Shown: positions 670-19,653, numbered from the stretch's first letter. The stretch is DNA of 20,000 bases from Elsinoe ampelina (GCA_010093995.1 ML992507.1:1419637-1439636), one strand, 5' to 3'. Numbers and translations are program-made. The notes: generated by a model from the letters alone, not told the origin.

Positions 670-2037
670 ATGGCTCGTGACGAGGCCTATGCCCCCTCAG
701 ACGACGAAAACGACTCCGACCACGACCTCCACATCTCCCGCAAAGGCGGCCGTGCCAAAGCGCGCGCGACACAAGCATGGGAAGCCTCTGCTCACCGGAA
801 CTGGGATCTGCAAGAGGATGCATCCGGCTCATTGACCTCGACTCTCACCAACCTCGAAGAAGCAGCTAAGCGGAAGCGATTACTCAAAGACACAACTCCG
901 CTCCAGCGCGGTATCATCCGACATGTCCTGCTCGTGCTGGACCTCAGCACGGCGATGCTAGAGAAGGATTTGCGTCCGAGCCGATTCTTACTTACCATTC
1001 AGTATGTGGTGCAGTTCATCGGCGAGTTCTTCGAGCAGAACCCTATCTCGCAGCTCGGGATACTTGGCATGAGAGATGGTGTGGCGGTGAGGATATCGGA
1101 AGTCGGCGGCAACCCGGTGGAGCACATCAATGCTGTTCGAGGATTGAGGAACAACTACGAGCCAAAGGGCAATCCATCGCTGCAGAATGCTCTGGAAATG
1201 GCAAGAGCAGGGCTCTATCACGCACCTAGTCATGGAACGAGAGAGGTGGTTATCATTCTGGGAGCTTTGCTGAGTAGCGACCCCGGCGACATCTACGATA
1301 CGATCAAGAAGTGTGTCAAGGATGGTATAAGAGTCGGGATAATTGGGTTAGCGGCGAGGATGCACATTTGCACGGAAATAGTCGGCAGGACGAATGGAGG
1401 AGACGAGTCCGGCTACAGTGTTGCAGTCGATGAGGTACAATATAGAGAGCTGCTGATGGGCATCACCACACCGCCAGTGGTCAGGGCTACAGACAAGAGG
1501 AGAGAGAAGAAGGCAGGCTTGCTGATGATGGGCTTCCCAAGCAGAGTCATGGAAGAAACACCAACTCTATGCGCCTGTCATGGACGACTGGAGAGGGGTG
1601 GCTACGAATGCAGTCGATGCAGAGCGAAGGTGTGCGGACTGCCAGCGACATGTCCTGGCTGCGATCTTACTCTCATCCTGAGTACGCACTTGGCAAGGAG
1701 CTACCATCATTTGTTCCCATTGATGAATTGGGTGGAGGTCACTTGGGAAAGAGCAAGAGAAAAGGGGAGCAGAGAATGCTATGGGTGCATGAGCGGATTT
1801 CCACCAGTACCTGGACAGAATGGAGAGGTCAATGGTGAAAGGAGGAGAGATGTCACGAAAAGGGCAACTGCGGAGGGGGCGAGTGAGAGCAGTAGGTATG
1901 AGTGCACCGTGTGCGAGAGGCACTTCTGCATCGACTGCGACGTCTTCTGTCATGAGGTCGTTCACAACTGCCCTGGATGCCAGAGCAACACCATTCTACC
2001 TGGACAGCAAGCGGATGAGGCTATGAATGGGGATTGA
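670..2037 (+). CDS. SSL1: TFIIH core subunit Ssl1/p44 (GTF2H2 orthologue), 455 aa, single exon
   Basis: Recognisable Ssl1 motifs: DTTPLQRGIIRH..LDLS.AM.EKDLRP, FFEQNPISQLG, PSLQNALEMAR, HGTREV, LLSSDPGDI (vWA domain); LCACH..GYECSRCRAKVC.LPATCP.C.LTLILSTHLARSYHHLFPL (C4 finger); C-terminal CYGC...YECTVCERHFCIDCDVFCHEVVHNCPGC. Confidence 0.97.
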   Translation: MARDEAYAPSDDENDSDHDLHISRKGGRAKARATQAWEASAHRNWDLQEDASGSLTSTLTNLEEAAKRKRLLKDTTPLQRGIIRHVLLVLDLSTAMLEKDLRPSRFLLTIQYVVQFIGEFFEQNPISQLGILGMRDGVAVRISEVGGNPVEHINAVRGLRNNYEPKGNPSLQNALEMARAGLYHAPSHGTREVVIILGALLSSDPGDIYDTIKKCVKDGIRVGIIGLAARMHICTEIVGRTNGGDESGYSVAVDEVQYRELLMGITTPPVVRATDKRREKKAGLLMMGFPSRVMEETPTLCACHGRLERGGYECSRCRAKVCGLPATCPGCDLTLILSTHLARSYHHLFPLMNWVEVTWERAREKGSRECYGCMSGFPPVPGQNGEVNGERRRDVTKRATAEGASESSRYECTVCERHFCIDCDVFCHEVVHNCPGCQSNTILPGQQADEAMNGD

Positions 2038-2962
2038 GGCTAGATGATCCAGGGCCATGCCGAACAGCACTTCACAACGCATTTGCTGGACAGCTGTGTG
2101 AAGCGAGAGAGTGCTACTTGGTAGGTATGTATGACTACACGAATGATGGTGCTTCACATCATTCCTCCGCAAGAGCGGCAGTAGCTTGGTGAGATACCAT
2201 GGCCGACATGCTCGGCTGTCTTTACTTTGTAGTGCTATCTGCATTCCTCGGGAGCGTGCCGAACCGAACAGCAGTCAGAATGGCAGGCTATCAAATACCG
2301 ACGACACAATGCATGATAAAGGGTCGACGAAGCGCTCGACGAACTAGTCAAACAAAGCATCCACTGGATCCAGGTTGCTATACCAGCACAGCTTCGGACC
2401 TTGTGAGGTCTCACACCTTCGTCATTGGTGCATCGGATACCACCACTTGCATCATGCCGAGATTGAGAGAACTTTACAGCTAGCTACCTGGCAAGCAAAC
2501 ACAATCACTTTGCCTCCCAAGCCGGCATGGCCGTTTCGACGTGCGGCCAGACCATTTAGAGTTTGACCCTGTCTGCTCTAGCGCGCATCCGCACCCCACA
2601 CGCCGCACACGGTCAGGCCGCTTGGACCGAGCTTTTGCAGGAAATTTGCGAGAGGCAGCTGGTGCGCGCGACGACAATTTCGCCCACTTTACATTCTCGC
2701 TAGGTACACTCTTCCCTCACCTTCTCTTCAACTCGTCGACCTGTCTTGAAACTCGTCGATATCGTCAGAACGACTACTTCATCACTCCTATCACTTCACA
2801 AGGTTCGTCAATTCCAACGGCCCGCTGCCTGTCAGCTGAAACTTCACACCAAAATCTCTCGCCTTTCAGTCGCACAACCGCCGCCGCCTCTCTTACTTGA
2901 TCCAAACCTGACCTTTACACAGTCTTCAATCTCTCAACCATCAACTCACCACCCCATACAAT

Positions 2963-3711
2963 ATGCAAGACTACGGAGCTCCTCAGGCCCAGGGCGGTCG
3001 TGCCTGCTACAACTGTGTAAGTCAACTACCCCGCTCCCCGCTTGTCTGGCGTTGTCAGACCTGCCGCCGAAAATTTCAGCTTTGCGCCTCCAGCACAATT
3101 CCTCCACACTCAACACTGTTCAACTATACTAACACGCGTCTGTAGGGAGAGACGTCGCATCAAGCACGTGATTGTCCCTCGAAGGGGACGCCGTCGTGTT
3201 ACAATTGTGGACAGGCAGGGCATATATCCCGAGAGTGCCAATCAGCTCCAAAGGAAAAGTCGTGCTATTCGTGCGGTGAGACCGGCCACATCTCTCGCGA
3301 GTGCCCCAAGGGCGGCGCTCCCGGAGGAGGATTCGGCGGCCCAGGAGCTGGAGCTGGCATGGAATGCTACAAGTGCGGCAAGGTCGGACACATTGCCAGG
3401 AACTGCCGCAGCAACGGCGGTGGCTTCGGTGGCGCCCCCGGTGGTGGCTACGGCCAGGGAGGTTTCGGTGGAGGTCGCCAGCAGACCTGCTACACCTGCG
3501 GCGGGTTCGGACACATGTCCCGTGACTGCACTCAGGGACAGAAGTGCTACAACTGTAAGATCTACCATTCCGTCTTGAAGGATATCACTAACAATTCGCA
3601 GGCGGAGAGATTGGCCATTTGAGCCGTGACTGCCCTTCTGAAGCCAGCCAGGAGCGCGTCTGCTACAAGTGCAAGCAGCCAGGTCACGTCCAGGCAGCCT
3701 GCCCCAACTAG
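2963..3711 (+). CDS. GIS2: CNBP/Gis2/Byr3-type zinc-knuckle nucleic-acid-binding protein, join(2963..3016,3146..3554,3602..3711), 190 aa, 7 CCHC knuckles
   Basis: Intron 1 is 3017-3145 (GTAAGT...TACTAAC...TAG) and intron 2 is 3555-3601 (GTAAGA...CACTAAC...CAG). The spliced frame gives seven CX2CX4HX4C knuckles ([98 protein letters not shown]) with Gly-rich linkers; stop TAG ends at 3711. Confidence 0.95.
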
Positions 3712-4957
3712 ACACACCACACCGACCGCGCTTAGGCGCACAACAGATTCTTCAGACCTGCATCACGGCACACCCAGCATCGGCAAGGACACCCCAATAT
3801 CGCTTCGGTTCGCGGCGGCAGACAGATGTATGATGAGGATGAGGAATGAACCTTAGGGAACCCCGGCGTTTTATCAGTTGACCGTTTACAACAAACCCGG
3901 GCTGCGACTCGATCTTTGGGGGTACTGGATGCTTGGGATGGACGATGCTCAACCTTGCTTTGACAGGGCAGGCGGCCGAGACGACGACGACGATCAAAAG
4001 TGTTTAGTCGAGGTTTTCTTTCCGGTCTGAGCGGACGGACAAGACCCTCTCCATGCTCCCCGAGGCAGAACTTCGTGCCTGGGACTTTTCGGAGTATGAT
4101 CTATTGTGATTGGTGACCTGCGTACGTAGCTGCCATCTAGAGAATGTGATGTTTGCAGCCCAACAACCTTTGTCCGCACCCGCGCTTGACATTTTTTTCA
4201 TTGATGATGTGCGTTTCTGACTACGTATCTCGTCGACAACATGCTTAGGAAATGGCATGGCTGAAGTCGTCGACCATGGGGAGAGACAGTGTTGCGTTCA
4301 GTCACGTGCAGACATGGATCATATCGCACTAAGCCTCTTTCAATGGAAAATGGCCACGATGGCCGTTTTTTGACCAAACAGGTTAGCGCGACTGCAGGTC
4401 ACCTTTTGAGAACATGTCATCTGGGCTCTCACCTACTACCTTACAGCATCCATTGCATCATTTTACAGCCGAAACGCCTTCGACTCGTTGTGCGTACCCC
4501 TGCTTTCACGTGTCGAGAAGACACGTCTATTCACACCACTTGTCAGGGATCTAGGATCCAGAGACTCTCTCGTACTCAAAGAGCTTTATGCGGGAACATC
4601 TCGTGCTCCAGCGAGGGGTGATGGAGCTCCATCAGATCTGTGGAGGGACTTGTTGGAGCTAGTCAGTATGGGGCCAGGAAGTGCTTCCATGCCAAAAGAT
4701 CTGACCTGAAAGGCACTGACCTGGTAGGAGCCGGTCTGGTAGGTATTGATCAGGATACAGATCATGTCCGCCCCGCAAGCAAGTCTTCCCACTTTTGCTC
4801 TTTCGACAGCCGTTCACATGTTTAGCTTGTCGATCATCTACCTCCTCACTGCTTCACCTCACCGCTGCGAATTTAGATCCAACTTCAAGTTCAAGCTCAC
4901 CTTCAACTTCAGCAGGCAGCCGTGGCATGTGCATCTACTGTAGCATGTGCTCGAAGG

Positions 4958-5214
4958 GATATATAAGACCACCTTCGCCCCCTCTAAAACCTTTCCTTCT
5001 TCCTACCACTCCACCCTTCCACTCCCTCGCCCCCTTTCCCCCCCTTTCTCACACCACCTCTCTTCTCTCCTACCACACACACTTACCTTTACAAGACCAC
5101 CCATCAGCAACATCACTCGCCACTCCAATACTGCCAACGACACAGATCGTGGCCCGAATCTTCAATTAAGCATCTCAGAACACATCAGGCAGGTCCTCCG
5201 AACTTATCACGATC
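4958..5214 (+). promoter_or_regulatory. Putative core promoter/5' UTR of the GTPase gene (TATA-like GATATATAAG followed by a long CT-rich tract)
   Basis: GGATATATAAG at ~4958-4968, then a pyrimidine-rich stretch (~4975-5110) typical of filamentous-fungal transcription start regions, upstream of ATG 5215. Confidence 0.45.
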
Positions 5215-8200
5215 ATGACGGACACGGCTGATCCTTCAGCTAAGGACAGTCTTTTCGTCCCACCCCATGATATCCGTGGTCCATCCATGATGCCATCTGG
5301 TGGGACTGATGTTAGCTCTGCTAGGACTGGAACGCCTCCCACGAGCTCTGCCTCTGAGACTGCTGCTGAGCCTGGCGCAGCTCCTACCAGCCCTCTCGCC
5401 ACCTCTTTCAAAAGACCTGCAGATGAGCCACCAGAAGACGAGCCTGACTCCAAGTCCGCACGCCGAACCATTCCCGGCAAAGTCAACTATCTCGGCGATG
5501 AGCTTGAAGAATACGACCCAGCTGAAGCGTTCTGTTTCGAGCTTCACGAAGGACTACCAATGGTTGCGTCGAGCCTGCCAGAATGCCGCCGAGCCGAGAT
5601 CCTGTCGGCAAAGGGACTACGCCTGGTACTTGATGAGCTCGAAAAACTACCAGAGCAAGGCAAAGAGATAGCTCGTCTCGTGCAGCAAATGAAGATTTGC
5701 TTGAACACCAAGCTGAGCAAGAAGTTTGTGGTAGTACTTGTCGGCGATACGGGAGCAGGGAAGTCCACGTTCCTCAACAAGCTACTTGGTCTTCGCAAGC
5801 AGCTTGCTTCCCAAGGTGCAAACGGCAAAGCTCAAACTCAAGTGGTGACAGAATACCATTTCGACGAGAGATACTCGAAGGAGAATGCGACCAAGCTGTC
5901 GCAACGCTCCATAATTCATCTCAAGTCAAAGGACCGGGTCGATGAGGAGATCGAGGCCCACCTTGAAACCTACTTGACCTTCCACAACACCGCCTTCAGG
6001 AACTTGCGTGGAGTCCAGAGGAAGAAGGAAGACATTGCTGAGGCTGAGACTGCAGAAGAGTTTCTCCTGACCGTTTTCGCTAAGCAGACTGGAGGCAACT
6101 TCAAGAATGCCGACAAACTTCGAGCGTACGCGAGGAAATTGAAAGCAAGAGAATACAACAAGACTCTCAAGGCTTTGCAGGACTATTGCGAAGGGCTACT
6201 ACGACCACACTTTGCGACAAAAGGCGATCCAGCGACCCGCGAGATACGAATCGACGAAGCGACTGTGTCAAAGCACAATCGGGCGGCTGCGGTCTACACG
6301 GAGCGCCCAATGTCTGGCCAGACTGGTCTCTGGCCGCTTGTGGAAAGGGTTCAGACTTTCGTTCCCTGCCCGCTTCTTGCCAAAGGCCTAGTCGTTGCCG
6401 ATGCACCTGGCTTAAGCGATAGTAATGCCATGAGACGGAACGCTTCCGAAAAGTACATCAGAGACGCCAACATGGTCTTCATCTTCGCACCCATCAAACG
6501 TATCGTCGATCACCCCATGATTCGCAAGTACCTCCGCAGCTGTCTCGTATCCAAATCCATCGAGGATGTGGTAGTTGTGCCGACCCAGATCGATGACATG
6601 GGTCAGCCTGGTGAGAGGGACTCGGAGGGAGAGGGACTGGATGATTACACACAGATGATTGCAGAATACGACGAGGCATACGAAGCTGCCGACGAAGCTT
6701 TCAGAAGAGCGTCGAAACGCACCGAGAACACCGAGACCAGGGTATCACTCAAAAAGACTCGAGAGAGAGCTCTGACGACTCTGCAACGCGCTCGCATCTT
6801 GATGCGCAACCAAGCAGTCACTCAGAATCTGCAGGGACTCTTGCCTGCCGAGTATGCCAAAGATAAGCTGTTGGTCATGCCTGTCTCCAGTTCCCAGCAC
6901 CAGCTCTACGTTGACGGCCTCGCCGGAGACGATACTCTACTCAAGATGGGACCTGACGGGCATGGAGAAGACGGAGTTGCGGCCATTCGCTCACTCATGT
7001 TTATGCGGGCCCAAGATGGTTTGATGCAGAGGCTCTTGGACTATGTGTTCAACGACATTGAGGTCCCACTGGGTCGCATGAAGCTGGTGCTGGAGAAGAA
7101 TCCGGACGATCGCAGAGAAAGTCTGTTCAAGGCGGTGGAGGAGGCTATTGAGAATGGCAAAGAATGTGTGACCGGGTATCACAAGAAAATTCAGGCAGCT
7201 GCAGAGCAGAAAGTTCTGAAAGCGATGACCAAGACCAACAAGCACTGGGTCAAACAATTCGACGAGCTGATCCAGGGGTGGTACGACATCGCATACGCAC
7301 ATCAGACATTCAAAGCGATTGCGAGAAGACATGGGCGCCACTACATCAAGAAGCAGGATGCAACGACCGATTGGACTGGCGATGTCATAGGAGTCGTCAC
7401 GCCGTCCATCCAACTGATGATTCGCGACTTCAAACAAGACTGCGAACGCATTCAAGTCAGCCTTCTTGAGTCCTTCAACGGTACGATGGACGGCGTGCGA
7501 GATACTACAAGGACCGACGCCAACGTGGGCGGGATCGACATGACGACCATCTTCAAGCTACTCGAGACGCACAAGAAGCACTTCGAGCACTCCGTTCCCG
7601 CAGCTTTCGCCGCTCTCGCTGACAGCGTCATAAAACTCGGTGCCGGAATCCTACCAGAACCGCACGAGATCCTACCAAATGCCAAATCCAAATCCAAGAC
7701 CAAAAAACTTCGTCTCGCTCGAGGCCAGGGCCGTGACTTCTACAAGAGCATGGTCGCCCTGTACGATGGCCTCGTCAGCGACCAACTTTTCGGGCCTGGC
7801 ACGAAGAAAGTGACCGCGAAGCGCTGGGCCCATCTCCGCAAGCAGCTCTGCAACACCCAATCAGGAAAGCCCATGAGCTCCCTCAGAGCCGACTTCCGCT
7901 TCCGCCTCACCCAAACCATCACCGGGTTTGCCGAACACCTCATGGTGGACATCATGGGATCGCCCTTCAGGGAGATAAGTGCGGATTTCGAAGCCAGGTT
8001 TGGCCGCTACGAAGACTTCCAGGATCAAGCTACCCGCGACAGTATCAAGACTGCGCTTGAGAAGGTACTACCACAGGCCAGACAGATGTTCGATGAAGCG
8101 CAGAGGTGCCTGAACTGTGCGGTCGAGTGGGAGAAGGAACATGGTGGGTTGGTGGCGAAGCCGGTGGCCAAGCAGGTCAAGTTGAAGGCCGAGGACTTTC

Positions 8201-8304
8201 TGGACGACATGGTGAGCGACGTTGAGGAAGAGGATGAAGATGACGACGAGGACGGGGGTGAGACAGAGGATTCGGACTCTGACCTCGAAAGCGAGGCGGA
8301 TTGA
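5215..8304 (+). CDS. Large dynamin-superfamily P-loop GTPase (Dynamin_N; SLIP-GC/NUGGC-like fungal family), 1029 aa, single exon
   Basis: G1 VVVLVGDTGAGKSTFLNKLLG, G2-like AQTQVVTEY, G3 GLVVADAPGLSD preceded by GLWPLVERV, G4-like VVPTQIDD; long helical C-terminal half; low-complexity N-terminus and acidic C-terminal tail; 3-kb uninterrupted ORF. Confidence 0.88.
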   Translation: MTDTADPSAKDSLFVPPHDIRGPSMMPSGGTDVSSARTGTPPTSSASETAAEPGAAPTSPLATSFKRPADEPPEDEPDSKSARRTIPGKVNYLGDELEEYDPAEAFCFELHEGLPMVASSLPECRRAEILSAKGLRLVLDELEKLPEQGKEIARLVQQMKICLNTKLSKKFVVVLVGDTGAGKSTFLNKLLGLRKQLASQGANGKAQTQVVTEYHFDERYSKENATKLSQRSIIHLKSKDRVDEEIEAHLETYLTFHNTAFRNLRGVQRKKEDIAEAETAEEFLLTVFAKQTGGNFKNADKLRAYARKLKAREYNKTLKALQDYCEGLLRPHFATKGDPATREIRIDEATVSKHNRAAAVYTERPMSGQTGLWPLVERVQTFVPCPLLAKGLVVADAPGLSDSNAMRRNASEKYIRDANMVFIFAPIKRIVDHPMIRKYLRSCLVSKSIEDVVVVPTQIDDMGQPGERDSEGEGLDDYTQMIAEYDEAYEAADEAFRRASKRTENTETRVSLKKTRERALTTLQRARILMRNQAVTQNLQGLLPAEYAKDKLLVMPVSSSQHQLYVDGLAGDDTLLKMGPDGHGEDGVAAIRSLMFMRAQDGLMQRLLDYVFNDIEVPLGRMKLVLEKNPDDRRESLFKAVEEAIENGKECVTGYHKKIQAAAEQKVLKAMTKTNKHWVKQFDELIQGWYDIAYAHQTFKAIARRHGRHYIKKQDATTDWTGDVIGVVTPSIQLMIRDFKQDCERIQVSLLESFNGTMDGVRDTTRTDANVGGIDMTTIFKLLETHKKHFEHSVPAAFAALADSVIKLGAGILPEPHEILPNAKSKSKTKKLRLARGQGRDFYKSMVALYDGLVSDQLFGPGTKKVTAKRWAHLRKQLCNTQSGKPMSSLRADFRFRLTQTITGFAEHLMVDIMGSPFREISADFEARFGRYEDFQDQATRDSIKTALEKVLPQARQMFDEAQRCLNCAVEWEKEHGGLVAKPVAKQVKLKAEDFLDDMVSDVEEEDEDDDEDGGETEDSDSDLESEAD

Positions 8305-8418: not shown

Positions 8419-8814
8419 CCCGGGAATTTCAGAGATGCTGGTGGGACGCTGGAGAGCTTCTCGTAGGACAATGCAATGCGGAGGCTCTCAGAGACAAGGA
8501 TGGGATCGAGCGAGACGAGACTGAGGATCTAATCACAGATTATCACATTTATCATCTAGATAGTCCGATCCATTGACCAAAGCAATCCAGTCCCAGAAGC
8601 GTCCATACCATTTCGTGCTCCGAGTTCCAGCTGCCTCGCAGCCCCTTGCTTGCCATCCATCATCGACCCGTGCCTGACTATGAATTGGGTATGCTCTTTG
8701 CCTTCCTGGTGTGCATGGAAATTGTGAGCTTGAAAGATCGGCGTCCGCCTTCCACTTGCGGTCCGACATCCGTTTCAGGTCTAGCGCCATCACTTGCGGC
8801 TCCTCGGACTCCTC

Positions 8815-8956
8815 TGTTGTAACTGGCAAATCGGATCGAGAGACGTGTATTTCATTCAGAGAGTTACAATAACCGATTTATCTACTGTGCGTGCGCTGAC
8901 TTATTAGTGCCAGTTCTTTAGTATTAGAGAAGCTATACTAGCCTTCTATTATAACA
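8815..8956 (-). repeat. Copia 3' LTR, 142 bp
   Basis: Bounded by inverted termini TGTTGTAA (8815) and TTATAACA (8956; one RIP-type mismatch). Directly adjacent to CTCCCTCTC (8957-8965), which is the polypurine tract GAGAGGGAG on the minus strand. The partner LTR is not in the window. Confidence 0.75.
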
Positions 8957-9324
8957 CTCCCTCTCTAGTATAGATTATTAAAGCTAGAGAACTATTCTGT
9001 TATATGTAAGTAAAGTAATTAGCTTATTACTTTATCTCTTTATAATTGCTTATGATTATTAGTGCTAGCTAATCACTAGTAAGAATTTACTATTAGATTA
9101 GCTTATAACAGCTAGTAACAATAGTAACTATTAATAATAGCTAGGTAGCTATTGTCTCTATTGTTCTATGTGAATAGATTAGCTTATAAATCTTAACAAG
9201 GGAGATATAAGTATCTAGCTAACTTCTTTATAGTTTCTCTTTCCTTTATTATACTTATAATAAAAGCCTACTATTTTACATTTCACTTTTACACCTTCTA
9301 TAGTATAAACTAACTCCTTATAGC

Positions 9325-10515
9325 ATAAGTGCTACTACTTAGCTAGGCATTAGTAGTATTACTACTAGTACTAGAGTACTAGGTAGTTCGCTAGGTAGTA
9401 GAGGTAGAGAATGTAATCTTTCTTAGTCTAGAGATTTAACTAGTTCTAAGACAAAAGAGTAGAGTACTATAAGGGCTATTACTAGACTAAATACTCTTAG
9501 TATATTATTCCTTATATAGTCTAAAAAGTAGTACTAACTTATTATAGTTAGGACTAAATAGGCTCTTACTTAGGAGCTTACTATAAGCATCTAGAACAAC
9601 CTTACTAGGCTTAGGGACCTTAGATACTACAACTATAACTTGCTATACTTAGTCTTTAGGTCCTCTACTATTTAGGCTTTTAGTGCTAGTAACCTAGATC
9701 TTTTAGTCTTAGCCCCTATCTAGGTAAAGAACCTAACTAAGATAATTAACTTAACTAGTTCTCTAACTTATATAGCTACCTTAATAGGAACTAGTACTAC
9801 TAGAAGAGTTATTTACTATAGTACTAACTACTACACTAAGTATTAGAGCTCTACTCTAAGTAATAATAATAGCCTTAGTAAAGCTAGTAAGTTCAAGTAG
9901 TATATTATAGTCTCTAGCTAGTTCTATAGTGCCTATACTAACTATGCCTATAGTCTATAGTATAAGACTTGCTCTCTTATCTAGTATACTTTAACTCTAA
10001 GGCCTCTAAAGGAAACTCTAAGTAGTTTAAGGCCTATTACCTAACCTGTTCTATATAGCCTAATATACCTACTAACTAAGCTTCTAAGGTCTTTCTCTTT
10101 TAGTAGTACTTTGCCTTAAAGGTTCTTACTAAGGCCTACTTCTTCTCGTAGTAGGCCTACTAACATTATTAATAAGTCCTTAGTCTATCCTAACTTACGC
10201 TACTTTATTATAGTCCCTATAGACTTTGCTAATCTAGCAAATCCTATATAAGCTAAGCTCTAGGCCCTATAGGTTATTATAGCTAGGTTTGCTATAAACA
10301 TAGCTAAGGTTATATCTAGTAAGAGGGCTAGCCTTCTAATTATTTACACCTTTACTATATAAGGTTTAGCTAGTAGTATAGGTTATATAAGGAATATATC
10401 TAGTTCTTCCCTAAGAAATAAAAGGTTAAGGGCTAACTCTAATATATTAATAGGTAGTAGATCTCGTGCTAGCTCTAAGAGCTTTAAGAGGATAAGAACT
10501 CCTCTAAGAAAGTAA
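9325..10515 (+). pseudogene. RIP-mutated DUF3716-like Cys-rich gene inside the copia element, antisense to pol (~396 codons)
   Basis: One frame with no frameshifts; internal stops are TAG/TAA, as expected from RIP of CAG/TGG/CAA. De-RIPed 9832-9978 reads C-T-K-C...G-K-F-x-Q-C-V-V-V-S-G-Q-F-x-G-A-C-A-N-C-A-Y-S-L-Q-Y-K-T-C-S-L, matching my recollection of the DUF3716 signature. The start is inferred from ATA at 9325. Confidence 0.75.
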
Positions 10516-10764
10516 TTAGTAGAGTGTAATAAGTAGTTAGTAGTATAGGATAGTAGTTAGTATTAAGTAGTAGATATAGCTTAGGTATAAGTAGCTAGTA
10601 ATAAGGTTATAATAGCTTTTTCTTTCTCTCTTTTTAATGTTAAAGTAACTTACTTTAAGTTTTTAGACAAATAAGATAGCTTAATAAGTAGTAGTAGTAT
10701 AAATAATATACTTAAAATAATAATACATATAAAATCTAAATAAGTATATAGTATAGATATACAC

Positions 10765-12656
10765 TAAGTAATTAGCCTTTGCTAATTAATTAAGGATCTT
10801 ATTAGGAGACTTAGGCTTTATAAGTGCATTAGCTAATTACTAAGTTATATTAATATACTTAAGCTTAATTACTCTAAGTTCGTGCTACTCTTTATAGTAA
10901 TAATTCTTTAGATTAATATACTTAGATCTCCTTAAGTTAGTATAATTTCTTATAAGTTTAATAGCTAATTTATTATTAATAAAGACTATAGTTAGACTAA
11001 GGTAGATATTAGTAAGTAGTCTAAGTTTAATAATAAGGTTTCTTAACTAATTAATCTCTCTATAGGTCTTAGTAAGGGTAAGGTATTTAGCCTTAGTNNN
11101 NNNNNNNNNNNNNNNNNNNNNNNNNNNNNNNNNNNNNNNNNNNNNNNNNNNNNNNNNNNNNNNNNNNNNNNNNNNNNNNNNNNNNNNNNNNNNNNNNNNN
11201 NNNNNNNNNNNNNNNNNNNNNNNNNNNNNNNNNNNNNNNNNNNNNNNNNNNNNNNNNNNNNNNNNNNNNNNNNNNNNNNNNNNNNNNNNNNNNNNNNNNN
11301 NNNNNNNNNNNNNNNNNNNNNNCCTTTAAGCTTCTCCTTTAAGTAGTGTAATTACTTAATCTTAATTATGTCCTTAGTTCTATAAAGTTAAATACTAAGG
11401 AAGAGGTTTAAGTTTATAATCTTTATTAGAAACTTAAGATAAAGATCTTTAACTAGCTTATCTATATACTTCTACCTAGTAGTAATAATTCTAAAGTTAT
11501 TAATATATATAAGAACTATATAGTACTTATTAATAAAGAGATAAGCATTACTATAAAATTTATTAAAACTAAGTAATAGAAGTGCCTTAACTATAGCGTT
11601 ATACTAGAGGGTAGTAGCTTACTTAAGCCTATATAAGCCCTTTATAAGAACAATAAGCTTATTCTATTTACTAGGAATTAGTACGCCTTCTAGGTAAGAG
11701 ATATAGTTCTTAATATTAATATCTAGTCTAAGGAATATAGTAACTACATTAGCTATTATAATAACCTAGTTATAATAAAGAGTATATATAAGAATTACTC
11801 TTCTAGTTTTAGCTCTTAGTATTAGTATAAAGGTTCTAACAAAGTTAATGCCTACTCTTTAAGTAAAGCTCCTTATAGTTTAATAAGCCTTATATCTTTT
11901 AACTTTACTATTAGTAAGCCTCTTAGTCTTAAAGATCTATTTACCTATTATTAGCCTAACACTTCTTAGTGCCTATGATTTCTTAATAATTAAAAAGGTT
12001 TTAGAGTTAGTTAGAGCCTTCTACTCTGCCTCTATTATAGCTTACTAGTAATAACCTTTAGAAGAGGATAGTATATCTCTTACTATTTGTAGGTCTAGCT
12101 TAAAATTGACAGCTATAGATCTAATAATCTTACTATTATTAAGCTTCTTATAATTAATCTAGCGATGTATTTTAAGAGACCTTCTAATAGTTTCTTATAG
12201 TAAGAGAGATCTCTTTCTTTTACTAGTTAGAGGTTATATATTAAATAGTATAATAAGGAAGTTAATATCTTTATTCTATATATATATTAGTAGTTAATTA
12301 ATATTAACTATAGGATTAAAGGTTAAATATAGTTTACTAATAACTTTAGGTAGTAGTATTATAAGGTCTTCGCTCTTATAATTAGTAATAACAAGTTACT
12401 TCTCCTATTTATTAATAGGTTAAGGATCTAGTTTAGGATGTTAGTATTGCTCTCTCTATTCTTTAATAGGGGTAGATAATTGTTATTTATATCTAGGGAT
12501 TAAAGGGTAGTTAGATATTAGTTGTTTAGCTTAAGGTTATTTAGCCTAAGTAGTTTATAGATTCTTATAACTAAAGGGTAGTTAATTATAGCTATAGTCT
12601 TAATTATAATTACTACTAAATATCTACTCCCTCTAAAGCTATAAAGCCTTAGGTTA
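10765..12656 (-). pseudogene. pol: Copia pol relic: reverse transcriptase and RNase H
   Basis: De-RIPed motifs: WIFKTK (~11935), YKAR..F.Q..GIDF, DVVTAFL, LVKGLYGLKQA..LWY (~11600-11650), VLVYVDDF (~11495-11515), FVDNKSAI, RSKHIDLK, QLADALTKP (~10795-10825). Boundaries are approximate. Confidence 0.9.
11098..11322. other. Assembly gap (225 N)
   Basis: Run of N between the copia RT and RNase H segments. Confidence 1.
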
Positions 12657-12661
12657 TTATA

Positions 12662-12892
12662 TATTAGAGGTAGATTATATTAATACTAGTAAGTATATAT
12701 AATAATTAACTTATAGTAGTATAAGGATAGCTCTTAATTAGTAGTGCGAATAATACTTAAGGAAACTATCTTCCTCCGCTAGTGCGTAGTAAGATTAGAG
12801 CCTATATATATAGGCTATCTAAAGCTAGCTAGACCCTAGATCCTTACACCTAATTAGAAGCTTATACCTTATCCCTAAAGATCTCTATAATA
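12662..12892 (-). repeat. Gypsy 3' LTR, 231 bp
   Basis: Ungapped match to 19418-19648 with ~13 differences by eye, all transitions. Termini TATT...AATA are RIPed TGTT...AACA. Followed on + by TTACCTCCTTCTCT, the complement of the PPT AGAGAAGGAGGTAA. Confidence 0.96.
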
Positions 12893-13264
12893 TTACCTCC
12901 TTCTCTAAGCTAATGTCCTTAGCAGCTAGCCTCGATAAAAACCTATTAGCCTTTATAACTATTATAGGAAAAGAGTGTCTAGCATTGCTACTTTATCTAC
13001 TTATGTCTCTTATATAATTTTTGCATAGTCCGTATATAATTAGTAAGGTTATTGTAGCTTTATTGCTTCTAGAAAGGTAAGTAATATGCGCTTTATTTAG
13101 GCTTTATTTAGGATTTTTGCCTCCTAGGCCCTTAGTACTAGAACTGCCTTTGTTACGTAGGACAATAATAATAAATATAGCTAGAATATATTTCTACGAC
13201 GCGCCTATACTTCTTAACTTCCTTAATAATACTTATTACACATACTACACCTTCTTTGCCTATT

Positions 13265-14260
13265 ATAGTTGCCTTTAGTAGACTAATATACATTAGCTCT
13301 ACTACTCTTAGTTGTGCCTATAACTATGCTTTTCGCCGCCGAGTTACCTACGATATAACTACGCTCTATATGCCGACTTATATATACTACGTATATAAGA
13401 TTATAAAGTATAGTATAGTTTATAGTAGGCTAGACCTTAAGAGGTGTAACTACTATACTAGAGGTAATAGATCTTCCTACACTCTAGTAGGGACTTTACT
13501 AAGTAATACTCTCCTATAACATTACTAATACACTTAGGTACCTATTACGTTTAATAGTTACGTCGAGCGCGTATACTAGTTCTACAATACCTATATCTAG
13601 GCTATTAATACTAGTACCTTTCCTAGGAATAGGAGAAGCTAAGACTCTACTATCTAGCGTATAGGCTTAGCTCTTACGCGCGCCTAGCGTACCCTTACCT
13701 AGTAGCTTAAGCATTATAGGTATATTATAGCTCTTAGAGGAAATCCCTTAGAAATACTAACTAAGGTGCCTAAGTCTAGCTCTAATATAGAGAGGCTATA
13801 GCTGTTAGAGTAGAGGAGAATTACTAATGTCCTAAAATAGATAGCTGTTTAGTAGTTTAGCTATGTAAGTTTATACCCTACTTGCTTCTAGTTTATATAC
13901 TAATAGCTAGGATAGCCTAGTCCTCTTAGGTTTAGTAGTAGTGCTCCTAGTGGTAGGCCTTACCTACACTTTAGGCCTAGTAGTAGTCCTAGAGGTAGTA
14001 GTAGTAGTAGAGGTAGAGGTAATAGAGGTAGAGATAGAGGTAATAGTAGCGGGAGTAGTAGCGTAAGTTTATACCTACCTATTACCTACATCGTATACTA
14101 ATATCGTAGCTAGGGTAGTAGAGGTAGTAATAATAGTAATAGGGATAGAGATAGCCCTAATAGAGATAGAGAGGATAGGGAGAATAGAGATAATAAGGAT
14201 ATTAAGGAGTTTAGTAGTTTAAGTAATAAGAATACTAATAACTAGATAGACGTAGTATAA
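13265..14260 (+). pseudogene. RIP-mutated four-exon antisense accessory gene of the gypsy element: Zn2Cys6-like Cys motif, helical middle, Gly-rich/acidic tail (~280 aa); join(13265..13486,13538..13864,13916..14062,14114..14260)
   Basis: Three GT...AG introns of 51 nt with CTAAT branch-like motifs (13487-13537, 13865-13915, 14063-14113), all phase 0, give one continuous frame whose internal stops are all TAG/TAA. The start (ATA for ATG), stop and two of the acceptor sites are inferred. Confidence 0.72.
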
Positions 14261-14589
14261 TCGCTATTATATATTATGTTAATCACTTACTAATAGTATA
14301 GCTAGGATAAAGAGGATAACTTAGATATTGTTATTAATAAGAATAAGAATAATAAGTAGTTATTACGCTTATTGCTTATAGGTTAGCTATATAAAGCATA
14401 TATAGCATAGGTGTTTTTAGTATTATTCTTACGAAGATACTAGGCTAAAGAGCTATAGATAGAAATAGACAGTCTTAATCCTTAAGCTAATGTTCCTATT
14501 AAAGTTATAAAGCTAAAGTCTCTAGTGCTAAGTATCTTATTATAAGTATATAATAGTATTACTACGAGTTATCTACTATCTACTACTAA

Positions 14590-17500
14590 GTTACTTATTC
14601 TTCTCTTAACCCTAGCTATACTTACTACTTTCTCTAAACTCCCTTAATAAGTTATCTATCTCCTTAAAGTCCTCTTCCTTTATCTATAAGCTTTTAGTCT
14701 TATTATACCTTTCCTACTTAAGTAGATATTTCTTCTTCCCTACGTATATAGTATGCTCCGTAAGAATCTTCTCTATATACTAAACTTATTCTCTATCTTT
14801 TACTAGCTCTAGGGCCCTTATGTTTAGTAATTCTTCTCCTTCCCTAGGGTAAAAGAGCTCTAGAAGAGACACATAAAACACATCGTATATGCGATAAGAG
14901 CTTAGTAGCTATAGGCGATATACCTAAGAGTTAATTACTTCCTTAACATAAAATAGGCCTACGAATTTGTCTATTAGCTTCTTACTTAGGGCTTTAAGCT
15001 TAAGGTTCTTTATGTTTAGCTACACTAAGTCCTTTAGCTTAAACTTTATTAGGGTATACTTCTTGTTATAGTACCGGGTTTAATACTTAGCTACGGCCTT
15101 TAAGCGCTCTTAAAGATTTACTTATAGTACGTATATGTTTTACACTTGTCGTATAGCTACTAGTATCTCCCCCTCTAGCTGCCTATCCTTAGGCGAGTTA
15201 TAGAGGATTAGGTACTTTCCTAGGACAATAAAGAACAGAGTTTTCTTTGTTGCTATATATATTAAGTTATTATATACAAATTCGGCTATATAAAGCAAAT
15301 TCGGCTAGTCTTTAGAATGCTCTCTTATAAATACCTAAAGGTAGTGTTCGAGTGTCTAATTCTAGTATTCTATTTACTTATCGGTTTATAGATAGAAAGC
15401 TATACTTAACCTACGCTTTACCTATAGTTAATAGCAAATTTTAGTCTAGAACTAGCTTATAAAGAGAGATCCTCTATCTAACATAATTCCTTTCTATACA
15501 CTATATTTGCAAATTATATGCTTAAAGTAGACATCTATAAAGTCCTTTATAGTCTATATCTCCTTAGCTACAATATAGATTACTAGCTTTAATAATCTAT
15601 TATAGATTACTAAGATTACATTATATGTGCTACTATTATACATTATAGAGGGGAGCTTTATAATAAAGTCTAGTATAACTTCTTTAAAGATATTAGAAGG
15701 AATAGGTAGAGATAATAGCTTACTATATAGTATATGCCTTAGTACTTTTAACCTTTAGCACGTGCTATATGTCTTAATATACTTATACACTTCCTAATCT
15801 AATAATAGCTAGTAGTAGTATCTACTAATTAGATTATGCATTCTTATAGCGCTATAGTAGCTAGCTATATAAGAGTTATAATGTTAATATAAGATTTCTT
15901 GTCTTAGACTTAGTTTATTAGGAACATAGAGCCTGCCCTTATATATAAGAGTTCTATCTTTACGTTTATACTATGCTAGTAACTTCTTACTACTTTAGGT
16001 ACGCTCTTCCTACTCTAGATCGGCTATGCGCTTTAAAGCAAAAGCGTTCCTCTACTAAAGTATATAGATAGTCTATAATATTAAAGTATCCTCTACTAAT
16101 ATAAGTTCGCTAGTAATAAGTACTCTCGCTAGATAGCGTAGTATATATAGTATATATTCTATAGCACTAGTAGTTAGGCTAGATCTACGTTTATAGGTTA
16201 TAGGCTATTAACCTACAACCTCTAAGCTATGCTTAGGGGTAGAGCTAATTCCACTAACAAGTTACACCCTTGTAGTAACTAGATCTAATCCTAGTTTACT
16301 TACTAAGTTTAGCTTATGTTATAAGGTAGAGAGTAATCTTATAAGTGCGTAGTTCTCCTTAAAGTAGTCTACTCTTCTTAAGGGCCTATTAGCTAGATTT
16401 AACTTGCTAGGGCAGTGCTAGACTTCGAAGTTAAAGGCTTCTAGGTAGGACGCCTATTACGCCTAGCACGGGTTAAGCTTACTTATATCGCGTATGTCTT
16501 GTAGGTTATTATAGTCACTTAGAACTTGTATAGTATACTAAGTGCCCTTAAGGTAGTAACGCTACTACTTAAAGCAATAGATAATTACGTATAGTTCTTA
16601 GTTATATACCTCCTAGATACGCTCTACTCTCTAAAGCTTCTTAGAGATAAAGGCGACTAGGTGCCATTTCTCGTCTTTATATAGCTAGGAGAGAATACCT
16701 GCTACTATAAAGGTCGATATATCTATCTCTAGGCATATTAGTAGCTAGGGGTCGAAATGTTATAGTAAAGGCGCTTCTATAAAGCATACTTTAAGCTAAA
16801 CAAAGCTAGCTTCTATAGCTTCTAGCTATATAAAGGTAAATTGCTCCTTCTTTAAAAGATCTATTATAGGGGCTATTAGTTTTATATAATTCTAAATAAA
16901 TCTATAATAGAAGTTAGCAAAGCTAAGGAATAACTAAAGCTCCTTAACGCTAGTTAGTCGAGGCTATCTAGAGATAGTTACTACTTGCGTAGGATTAGCG
17001 TAGACACCTCGCATGTCTATAATAAACCCTAAGAAGAACATCTACTTTATAGTAAAGGTATACTTAGACAGGTTTACGAACAGTTTAGCCTGTCTTAACT
17101 GTTTAAGAATAGCGCTTACTACTCGCTAGTAGGTATCTAGATCTTTACTATAAGTGTAGATAAGAATATTATCTAGGTATACTATATATAGATAGTCTAC
17201 TAATCCTCTAAGAGTCTAGTTAATATAGGCCTAGAAGGTAGTAGGCGCGTTAGTAAGCCTAAAAGGCATAACTAGGTATTTAAAATAGCTATAACGTGTT
17301 CTAAAGGCAGTCTTCTACTTATCTCCTAGGCTAATATAGATTCTGTTATAAGCATCCTTTAGATCTAGAGTTATATAGTAATATACGCCTAATAGGTAGT
17401 CTAGCGTCTTACTAATTAAGGAGAGTAAGTAGTAATCCTTTATAGTAACAGAGTTAAGGCCTCTATAGTTAATATATAAACGAAGAGTGCTATTCTTCTT

Positions 17501-18322
17501 TAGCATAAATAGGATAGGTGCCTCTACTAGGCTTATACTATAACGAATTTAGCCCTTCTTAAGTGTATCTTCGAGGTATAATTATAGCACCTTAAGCTCT
17601 TATAAAGAGAGGTTATAGAGCAGGCTATAAGGTAGCTCCTTGCCTAGTAGAATAGGAATTTAATAATTCTCTTCTTTAGTAGTAGGTAGGATTTTAGTAG
17701 CATTAGTATTAAAGACGTCCCGGTAGTCTAATAATACGTCTAGCACTTAATTTTCCTAGGAGACACTAGCAATTTAGACATAGGTAATAACTTCCTTACC
17801 TTAAGAGTTACTATAAACCACGCCTAAGAAGTGTATATAGCTCTCCTCTTATTCTAGCTACTAGATTGTTACTATCTAGATACGTAACTTGTCTTTAATG
17901 CTCTAAGCCTAAGTCTACTATCTATAGTCTAGCTATATAGCTTCTCTTTATAAGAAGGAGTTACCTAAGAGTAGCTCTAGCCCTTCTTTGTCTACTCTAT
18001 AAGTAATAGTTTTAACCTAGTATATTACGCCTCGGTTGTTAGTAAGTACTACCTATATCTTATATATAGTATATATAGCTTTCCTCTCTAACTCTACCTA
18101 GGCTAGTTAAGGTAGGTTACTTAGTACTAAGTTAAGGTTTATCTTAATTGCTATATGCTAGCTAATAAGGCTAACCTCTACTTAAGAATCTAGAATAACT
18201 CCTACCTTATAGTTAACCCTAGTTGCTTCTATTATAATGTAGATATAATATATCCCTAGTAAAATATTAATAGCTCTATGCCTTATAGTTCCGGAGGTAA
18301 CTACGAGGCTCGGCCTTTTCCC
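14590..18322 (-). pseudogene. pol: Gypsy pol relic: protease, RT, RNase H, integrase, chromodomain
   Basis: De-RIPed motifs: ILDS (protease, ~18190), KK.GTLRLCVDYRGLN, LDLKDAYN, KTAFRT, MPFGLTNAPATFQ, VYLDDILI (~17165-17182), LETDAS..AGILSQ, WHPVAF.SKK, integrase CxxC (~15760), LDFI, SDRGSLF (~15470), PQTDGQTERQN (~15370), GPF (~14955), chromodomain VEKIL...KYLLKWEGY...SW (~14685-14785). The 3' end is approximate. Confidence 0.95.
18280..18322 (-). promoter_or_regulatory. Putative -1 programmed ribosomal frameshift signal between gag and pol
   Basis: Slippery heptamer G GGA AAA in the gag frame (18322-18316), a 6-nt spacer, then an 11-bp stem-loop (18309-18280). The RT frame is -1 relative to gag. 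Confidence 0.75.
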
Positions 18323-19377
18323 TAGACCTATCTTACGCGAGTAATAGGCTCCTTATTAGTGTCTAAGAGTTAGGCTTTCTTCCTACACTCGTTTACGTAG
18401 TAGCCTATCTTCTTATAGAAGTAGCATTTAACTCCCGACTTGTAGGAGGAGTCTTTCTTAGAGGCTAACCTCTCTTTATATTAATCCTCGCATTATAGCT
18501 TTTAGCTATATCTAGCTAAGTAATTGCGATAGTTCTATAGCTTGCCTATGCCCTATAGGTTATACTCTAGCGTAGATCCTAGAATAATAAGACCTTCTCT
18601 TATTAGAGGTATAGTATAGTAGTTTATAATTGCTTACTAAAGTTCAGAGCGGAGTTTTAAGAATAGGTACTATATATAGTACTCCTCTAAGTAGGGGGGT
18701 AGCTAGTTCTTAATTGTTTCTAAATAGGTAGCGAAGGCCCTAATACTCTATCTAGGAAGTTATAGCGTAGTAGTATACGTAGTAGTTGCTTCTAGGGTAC
18801 AATTAATAGAATTAGAGAGTATGTCTAGTAGAAAGGTCTTAAATTAGCTCTAGGTATACGATTTTATAAGTAGCTTATACTTTATATAAGAGTACTATAC
18901 TTCGTATAGGTCCTCTATAAGATACTAGCTTACCTAAGTAACCTTCTCTTGTTCTAACTAGAAGTTCTCTAGAGTAAGCTAGAAGGCTATCTTATAGCTC
19001 TAAGTAAATTCCTTATGTTTCCTTAGGTGTTTCTCTTTATATTCCCTAGGATCCTTTAGCCTTATACTACGCTTCGTACGTAAAGATTCTATATCTTAAG
19101 AGGTATAGCGCTTATAACTTTCAGCTGCTAATCTTATTTCTACATCGCTTTAGATCTTAATACTATCTAGATTTACTTCTCTCTTAAGGAGAGCAATTTG
19201 TTCCTTAATCTATTAGAGAGTCTATTCCTATAGGAGATAATCCCTTCGCTATTCTACGTTATAGATATGCTTCTCGAGCGAGGTAGTTACTACTAGCAGT
19301 TCTCCCGGAGTAGTTATAGAGGTTCCTATACTCTCCTTATTACTAATAGAGCCTAACTACGTCCTTGTAATAGCTAT
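18301..19377 (-). pseudogene. gag: Gypsy gag relic with C-terminal CCHC zinc knuckle
   Basis: De-RIPed C-Y-F-C-K-K-x-G-H-Y-x-N-E-C at ~18383-18427; the frame ends QGKGRAS-stop at 18301. The start is inferred from ATA at 19377, just inside the 5' LTR boundary region. Confidence 0.85.
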
Positions 19378-19417
19378 CCTTAGACTACTTTCTAAGTAAG
19401 GCAAGGAAGTATTATTA

Positions 19418-19648
19418 TATTAGGGGTAGATTATATTAATACTAGTAAGTATATATAATAATTAACTTATAGTAGTATAAGGATAGCTCTCGATTAGTAG
19501 TGCGAATAATACTTAAGGAAACTATCTTCCTCCGCTAGTGTATAGTAAGATTAGAGCCTATACGCATAGGCTATCTAAAGCTAGCTAGACTCTAGATCCT
19601 TATACCTAATTAGAAGCTTACACCTTATCCCTAAAGATCCCTATAACA
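19418..19648 (-). repeat. Gypsy 5' LTR, 231 bp
   Basis: Direct repeat of 12662-12892; begins TGTT on the minus strand (AACA ending at 19648); flanked by TSD TTATA. Confidence 0.96.
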
Positions 19649-19653
19649 TTATA

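Follow-up and report, generated by a model that had tools for sequence, protein, structure and literature searches.

INTRODUCTION

Accessory genes of long terminal repeat (LTR) retrotransposons are rare and poorly understood. One of them, brtn, is said to have been described by Zhao et al. in 2011 (Virology 417:248) in Boty-like Ty3/gypsy elements of Botrytis cinerea and Sclerotinia. The excerpts available of three accounts present brtn as an additional gene of Boty-like elements, which are fungal gypsy elements with a chromodomain, and place it in antisense orientation, with pol on one side and the 3′ LTR on the other (PMC7264820, PMC8365987, PMC4227169), and that of a fourth reports a Monilinia transcript similar to truncated Pol and BRTN (PMC5987419). 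Additional antisense open reading frames (ORFs), of unknown function and conserved within families, are described in the first of these excerpts for the plant LTR retrotransposons Grande, RIRE2, Retand, and PvRetro13 (PMC7264820). Here, we describe a gene family that was revealed by a stretch of 20,000 nucleotides (nt) of Elsinoe ampelina DNA (GCA_010093995.1 ML992507.1:1419637-1439636), the whole of which we call the window. Judging from the sequence, plus-strand positions 13265 to 14245 almost certainly hold a real gene, namely, a copy of a conserved accessory gene with introns that was inactivated by repeat-induced point mutation (RIP) and lies antisense in a Ty3/gypsy chromovirus.

Compared by description only, brtn and this gene both belong to chromodomain gypsy elements and lie antisense in the interval from pol to the 3′ LTR, a position that we found in the window and in 10 of 18 loci. 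They differ in their hosts, which are Leotiomycetes for brtn and Dothideomycetes here, and the available excerpts on brtn mention neither a cysteine motif nor an intron structure. No protein named BRTN was among the matches of our homology searches with the family. The plant antisense ORFs, likewise compared by description, have the same place and orientation and belong to another kingdom and to other element lineages. HBZ of human T-cell leukemia virus type 1 is an antisense, spliced bZIP regulator transcribed from the 3′ LTR. We use it as a working analogy for what may be a spliced antisense regulator of a retroelement expressed from the 3′ LTR; its fold and host are unrelated, and the family described here is known from sequence alone.

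In the literature searched, which left most subscription journals outside, brtn was the only accessory gene of a fungal LTR element that we found, and nothing that we found there described an antisense gene with a cysteine module in elements of Dothideomycetes. The novelty lies in the family and not in the dead copy in the window; according to the excerpts on brtn, an antisense gene at this position in a fungal chromovirus was already known. The family consists of conserved "hypothetical" proteins that lack Pfam domains and share a Cys module, with conserved introns and signs of purifying selection, in diverged chromoviruses of two Dothideomycete subclasses. It is a concrete candidate for self-regulation of an element or for resistance to genome defence.

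RESULTS

A probable gene relic antisense to gag-pol

The gag-pol frame of the host element occupies 14584 to 19414 on the minus strand. With the end of pol at about 14584 and the 3′ LTR at 12659 to 12896 (minus strand; first called at 12660 to 12895 and then refined by alignment), about 1.7 kb lies between them, and the gene is read from this interval on the plus strand. Exon 1 (13265 to 13486; 74 codons) starts with ATA, which would derive from ATG, and carries a conserved N-terminal segment and six Cys positions. It is followed by intron 1 (13487 to 13537; 51 nt, phase 0, GTAGGG...TTACTAAT...TAG). Exon 2 (13538 to 13864; 109 codons) contains 12 RIP-type stops and a helical core that reads VP..FN..R..RVY ... 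LARAQR ... LLEQRRI, and intron 2 (13865 to 13915; 51 nt, GTAAGT...TATACTAAT...AG) has its donor where the family has one. The low-complexity exon 3 (13916 to 14062), the first part of the tail, is now rich in Ser, Arg, and Gly and was presumably Gly-rich before RIP. A putative intron 3 (14063 to 14113; 51 nt, GTAAGT...TATACTAAT...AG), recognized by splice-like signals only, separates it from exon 4 (14114 to 14245), the second part of the tail, which was probably rich in Asp, Glu, and Gly before RIP. The first in-frame stop of exon 4 is the TAG at 14243 to 14245, and the next is the TAA at 14258 to 14260; because RIP generates both TAG and TAA, the true stop of the gene is uncertain. All four exons are in one phase, and the intron-like segments contain ACTAAT branch-like motifs. 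An earlier note, made from the sequence of the window, had listed these segments with their donors, motifs, and common exon frame, and all were present; the 87-amino-acid ORF that it mentioned lies at 13256 to 13519 and is a fragment of the gene.

We then read the codons at the six Cys positions. The codon at 13445 is TGT, and the others are TAT (13379, 13421, and 13454) or TAC (13388 and 13478), as had been noted; a RIP-type G-to-A change accounts for all five TAY codons. The exon frame has 4.66 stops per 100 codons, with none in exon 1 and none in exon 3, compared with 7.33 per 100 codons in the true pol frame and 9 to 29 in off-frames. The coding relic is readable through heavy RIP. The three plus-strand frames of the window gave no match in Pfam.

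Homologues in other fungi

We searched 1.84 billion representative proteins by phmmer with the plus frame of 13256 to 13864, in which stops were written as X, and found five matching proteins (E values of 8e-7 to 3.7e-4). In the reverse direction, tblastn with one homologue, P0007, against the window gave an E value of 5.5e-9, and a profile search gave 27 relatives. Named homologues come from Pyrenochaeta sp. (P0006), Alternaria (P0007, P0011, and P0012), Meristemomyces frigidus (P0008), and Paraphaeosphaeria sporulosa (P0002), so that the named species are split between Pleosporales and Mycosphaerellales, two Dothideomycete subclasses. Many of the remaining relatives are ORF fragments. All homologues are labelled "hypothetical," and Pfam found no domain in any family member. 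A locus scan from the closer of two family alignments gave 18 metagenome loci, numbered L001 to L018.

In the full-length Pleosporales proteins, exon 1 encodes PT-C-x2-C-x10-C-x7-C-x2-C-x7-C-(Y/C/F)-L-VP. The earlier note had deduced this spacing, with the preceding PT and the following VP, from the damaged copy, and P0006 and P0007 have it letter for letter. The Meristemomyces protein P0008 deviates slightly (x11 and x6 spacers, no PT, and VS in place of VP). The six Cys are invariant or nearly invariant across 15 sequences. Exon 1 of the window aligns to the family without insertions or deletions: the start is 72 codons from the sixth Cys, two further codons follow, and then comes the donor, as in 12 of 12 loci with exon 1. 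The ATA at 13265, which had been proposed as a former ATG start, aligns with the family Met codon. We also ran a RIP-aware colinearity test on the 81 columns in which the family consensus is at least 70%. The window codon was identical in 32 columns, RIP-revertible in 24, and different in 25, 11 of which are columns of intron read-through. Shuffled pairings (2000) averaged 14.2 matching columns and never had more than 28, compared with 56 for the window. Homologues in other fungi, together with the codon-position variation on the plus strand described below, argue that the antisense gene of the earlier note is real.

The intact protein has about 220 to 240 amino acids. It begins with MVYYPxPKYIxK... 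and continues with the six-Cys module, a helical region of about 100 residues, and a tail that is acidic and rich in Gly, Asp, and Glu. In copies carried by elements, the Cys module has loops rich in Lys and Arg. Intact relatives have the Gly/Asp/Glu tail at the place of exon 3, which agrees with the tail composition predicted from the relic. In the ESM Atlas, we found nameless Ascomycota clusters only, with 63, 157, and 77 members (scores of 0.90, 0.86, and 0.84). A search among longer proteins found no fused forms, which is weak evidence, and no viral contigs were found. Decayed copies occur elsewhere (P0035 and L016:160-590), and Tyr is read at their Cys positions; RIP-type damage is therefore also present outside the window.

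Introns across the family

All 12 metagenome loci with exon 1 share the codon position of intron 1. The intron has 49 to 56 nt there, a GTGAGT, GTAACT, or GTAAGT donor, and a CTRAY branch-like motif, and its acceptor precedes the Val-Pro codons. The NCBI models P0006 to P0008 splice out the segment at this position. P0009 and P0010, which are unspliced ORF calls, read through intron 1 with 17 extra residues, and other unspliced ORF calls lose homology where exon 1 or exon 2 ends, after a V (GT). As the length of intron 1 is not divisible by three in 9 of the 12 loci, the conserved protein is obtained only after splicing. The donor of intron 2 lies 8 codons past the ALEQ equivalent in the window, in L008, and in unspliced ORFs alike; intron 2 of L008 has 61 nt (739 to 799).

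Introns 1 and 2 of the three that had been proposed are therefore at positions conserved in the family. Intron 3 did not find such support: L008 has two introns, and the intact copies examined have no counterpart of a third. Introns 2 and 3 of the window share their first 13 nt (GTAAGTTTATACC; 13865 to 13877 and 14063 to 14075), and both end in TATACTAAT..AG. Intron 3 may have been born by a duplication of intron 2 inside the tail.

LTR elements replicate by reverse transcription of their pol-sense RNA. An antisense gene is present in this genomic RNA only as its complement, so that its introns are left in the template and would survive retrotransposition. The data are consistent with this argument, which had been put forward for the window copy. 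If so, the family is a textbook case of introns kept through antisense placement.

Predicted structure and proposed function

We ran AlphaFold2 on P0007 with 7 sequences. The model had a mean predicted local distance difference test (pLDDT) score of 67, with about 90 over residues 81 to 130. Helices were predicted at residues 77 to 99, 107 to 137, and 151 to 180, the first two of which would form an antiparallel hairpin, and the tail was disordered. Exon 2 had been described as helical from its sequence, and the helices of the model, with pLDDT of about 90, agree with this. A short helix was predicted at each C-x2-C motif in the models of P0007 and of exon 1. Foldseek found no match to the whole-protein model at E values up to 0.001. 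A broad structure search (VIA-wide) with the P0007 model returned only generic antiparallel helical hairpins (best Z of 5.2), and the best structural match of the exon-1 model was at Z 2.1. A homodimer-plus-zinc prediction scored 0.02, which counts neither for nor against such a complex. A profile search of Protein Data Bank (PDB) sequences gave two matches, both to acidic tails and at chance level (E values of 0.56 and 1.4).

The closest described cysteine module is the Zn2Cys6 cluster (Gal4 type, PF00172), whose textbook pattern is CX2CX6CX5-12CX2CX6-8C. The family resembles it in having six Cys in two C-x2-C-xn-C halves, with short helices predicted at the C-x2-C motifs and with helices and an acidic tail after the module, as in small activators. 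It differs in its second spacer, which is 10 residues (11 in P0008) and not 6; spacers 1, 3, 4, and 5 fit. Moreover, it matched no PDB Zn2Cys6 sequence, and the protein is a retrotransposon product of only about 230 amino acids that lacks the middle domain of fungal-specific transcription factors. The window and the loci contained no example of Zn2Cys6. The resemblance to Zn2Cys6 drawn in the earlier note was not upheld as membership, because of the second spacer and because the Pfam Zn_clus hidden Markov model matched 0 of 15 members at E values up to 10 and 0 of 5 members in a separate run.

Most likely, as far as its sequence features indicate, the gene encodes a nuclear regulator of the element. 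The Lys/Arg-rich loops of the element-borne copies, together with the helical hairpin and the acidic tail, would suit a small regulator of the element that binds DNA or chromatin in the nucleus; a basic Cys module, helices, and an acidic tail are found in this order in small fungal activators. The antisense transcript would begin near or in the 3′ LTR. The protein would bind nucleic acid or chromatin in the nucleus and would promote the expression of its own element. In one variant, it would activate transcription from the LTR, with the basic Cys module as the DNA-binding part, the helices for oligomerisation, and the acidic tail for activation; in the other, it would counter silencing. We lean toward this explanation as a whole, that is, a spliced accessory gene whose product is a zinc-binding nuclear regulator of the element, and the six cysteines probably do bind zinc. 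That the protein is a DNA-binding transcriptional activator of the element is a tentative and somewhat doubtful proposal. A fuller picture seems unlikely on the present sequences: a chromovirus clade would have its own miniature Gal4-style antisense activator, built from a diverged binuclear zinc cluster, a coiled-coil, and an acidic tail. It would be spliced and expressed from the 3′ LTR and would switch on or protect the LTR, and hosts would repeatedly have adopted pol-less copies such as L013 and L014 for themselves. If true, the activator would parallel, in fungi, the antisense regulators that complex retroviruses encode.

Several observations weigh against a zinc-binding regulator. Zinc binding is read from cysteine conservation alone. 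Zn_clus failed to match as stated above, and the exon-1 model is of low confidence (pLDDT of 57.7). No CGG-type repeats stood out in the LTR and spacer of L010, where we found one CGGCCG. In the copies of L012 and L014, the Cys-module loops are acidic and not basic, which weakens a universal role in DNA contact. The window copy itself is dead, with its start codon gone, 13 stops in frame, and only one of the six Cys codons unchanged.

These results leave room for an element-borne gene whose protein is not a transcription factor and acts post-transcriptionally or on chromatin proteins, which we consider rather unlikely. It could assist as a cofactor when particles assemble or during reverse transcription or integration, or it could work as a decoy whose acidic tail captures histones or silencing proteins, and the Cys module could be a zinc knuckle that binds protein or RNA. 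The missing Zn_clus matches, the atypical second Cys spacer, and the acidic loops in L012 and L014 would all fit such a protein, as would a helical hairpin that matches only generic coiled-coils (Z of at most 5.2). Its acidic tails are like those of histone-binding proteins, and the PDB matches to such tails were not significant. However, none of these roles is positively supported, and small fungal activators have this overall order of basic Cys module, helices, and acidic tail.

Position of the gene in elements of other fungi

Ten of the 18 loci (L001 to L004 and L006 to L011) have the chromodomain end of a gypsy pol directly downstream of the gene and convergent with it. The earlier note had suggested checking whether relatives lie between chromo-integrase and LTR, and these loci have that arrangement. 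Two loci (L005 and L012) are too short for a downstream call, four (L013 to L016) have no pol although there is room for one, and two (L017 and L018) have partial matches of 31 residues only. L008 is a complete element, with the gene at 147 to about 1009, pol at 1097 to 4831 (reverse transcriptase [RT], RNase H, integrase, SH3, and Chromo), and gag at 4783 to 5994. The window element has the same layout although the two pols are only 41% identical. These comparisons indicate that a clade of Dothideomycete Ty3/gypsy chromoviruses carries the gene, antisense and convergent, in the interval from the chromo-integrase end of pol to the 3′ LTR. The gene is very probably an integral accessory gene of the element.

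The contigs also showed unusual arrangements. L010 contains two tandem elements that are 6403 nt apart and share an LTR, and L007 and L008 (about 6.5 kb) show one element in two circularly permuted orders. Tandem arrays, an assembly collapse, or circular forms could account for these arrangements.

We estimated the ratio of nonsynonymous to synonymous substitution rates (dN/dS) in exon 1 and obtained 0.12 to 0.45 for eight pairs; the sequences indicate that the gene family is under purifying selection. Two loci without pol carry intact genes with poly-Asp tails beside other genes. The L013 copy (L013:1981-3200) is near alcohol dehydrogenase and Nup192 genes, and the L014 copy (L014:8675-9900) is near HET, NACHT-ankyrin, ABC transporter, and kinase genes. 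The two copies are 80.6% alike over 1.1 kb, and the exon-1 dN/dS between the L012 and L013 sequences on one side and that of L014 on the other is 0.15.

Such intact copies outside complete elements and beside host genes, and a protein function so far only inferred, would suit a passenger, that is, a host gene captured by one ancestral element and without a role in the life cycle of the element. We consider this very unlikely. L013 and L014 retain the LTR end, the polypurine tract, and a spacer of about 360 nt of the element, so they are derived from elements and are not the source of the gene. In addition, the gene keeps the same place and appears to be under purifying selection across elements whose pols are 41 to 80% identical, whereas a useless gene would be expected to decay. 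With an accessory gene of the element as the preferred reading, the L013 and L014 copies may be element remnants, domesticated genes, or a pol-less derivative element; as such, they are possible cases of domestication.

Coding strand

The minus-strand frame over the same exons is as stop-poor as the plus frame, with 3.94 stops per 100 codons, and intact copies have open minus-strand ORFs of 205 to 222 amino acids over the gene (L008:496-1110, L010:1004-1669, and L007:5612-6259). Both facts would be expected if the sense (pol) strand were coding, either as a third ORF downstream of pol or in a dual-coding arrangement, and the plus frame were a shadow. Because the minus frame is as stop-poor, the coding strand could not be told from stop counts alone; it was settled by the homologues and by the variation among codon positions. 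Over 55 ungapped exon-2 codon columns of 12 distinct loci, variable sites at the first, second, and third positions of the plus frame numbered 26, 23, and 52, and pairwise differences numbered 756, 669, and 1503. The excess at third positions marks the plus strand as the selected reading. The minus-strand ORFs had no match in Pfam, and the conserved GT..AG introns, the Met, and the Cys pattern are found on the plus strand only. Moreover, the reverse complement of a sequence rich in GGT, GAT, and GAG cannot hold stops, and we take it from the sequences that the minus-strand ORFs are shadows of a codon-biased plus-strand gene rich in these codons. A coding sense strand is thus highly improbable.

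First-order Markov simulations gave 3.7 chance intron-like patterns per 22.4 kb (standard deviation of 2.2), whereas 6 were observed, and for three patterns within 630 bp on one strand we estimated a chance of about 0.01 after correction. An open-looking frame with splice-like motifs arising from TA-rich, RIP-mutated DNA, in which such patterns do occur at random and in which Tyr codons are so abundant that a Cys pattern could be picked by choice, was ruled out by homologues with the exact motif, by equal exon lengths and intron positions, and by the shuffle test.

Host element and surrounding sequence

The LTRs and protein domains identify the host as a Ty3/gypsy chromovirus. Its 5′ LTR (19416 to 19651, minus strand) and its 3′ LTR are direct repeats with 94% identity. 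The gag-pol is a single RIP-degraded frame that encodes RT, RNase H, integrase, SH3, and a chromodomain-like end. In the minus-strand frame from 19414, with X at stops, Pfam found RVT_1 (1e-18), two RNase H models, Integrase_H2C2, and SH3_Tf2-1. The chromodomain-like end of pol was read in the window, and the full set of domains, including Chromo (3e-12), is present in L008 and L010. By tblastn, the intact L008 pol matched 18322 to 14621 of the window with 41% identity, a value partly lowered by RIP, and the L008 gag matched 19077 to 18304.

Between the 3′ LTR and the start codon is a spacer of 368 nt (12897 to 13264, plus strand), the presumed promoter and 5′ untranslated region of the antisense gene. 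In L010, the comparable spacer is about 410 nt (LTR end at about 244 and ATG at 656). The polypurine tract AGAGAAGGAGG (12897 to 12911, minus strand) adjoins the 3′ LTR, and beside it, up to about 12950, is a conserved T-rich stretch, GCCTCGATAAAAACCT on the plus strand. The polypurine-tract region of the window is homologous to those of L010, L013, and L014 (CCTCCCTCTCTA...GCCTCGATAAAAACCT). The tract and the T-rich stretch are nearly identical in the window (12897 to 12950) and L010 (L010:245-300) despite pols that are 41% alike; L013 and L014 have kept the tract and not the T-rich stretch. The T-rich stretch could serve in plus-strand priming, as a U-box-like signal, or belong to the antisense promoter.

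In the window's own species (run X1), contigs span 30 of 30 bins of 12660 to 15660, with 564 pieces placed, and 269 of 281 variant places are transitions. In a second organism (X3), contigs span 28 of the 30 bins, including 13406 to 14024.

The left part of the window, up to about 8500, is normal in GC content (about 52 to 58%) and contains a TFIIH Ssl1 gene (670 to 2037) and a dynamin-like GTPase gene (5215 to 8304). At about 8500, there is an abrupt switch from these genes to AT-rich, RIP-affected repeats. In the AT-rich part, TpA/ApT is 1.6 to 9.7 and (CpA+TpG)/(ApC+GpT) is 0 to 0.56, which are extreme values for these RIP indices. A second AT-rich, RIP-like block (8800 to 12659) lies to the left of the element. 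It has a single match of 32 nt to the element and contains two further plus-strand splice-like patterns, at 9887 to 9953 and 11012 to 11065.

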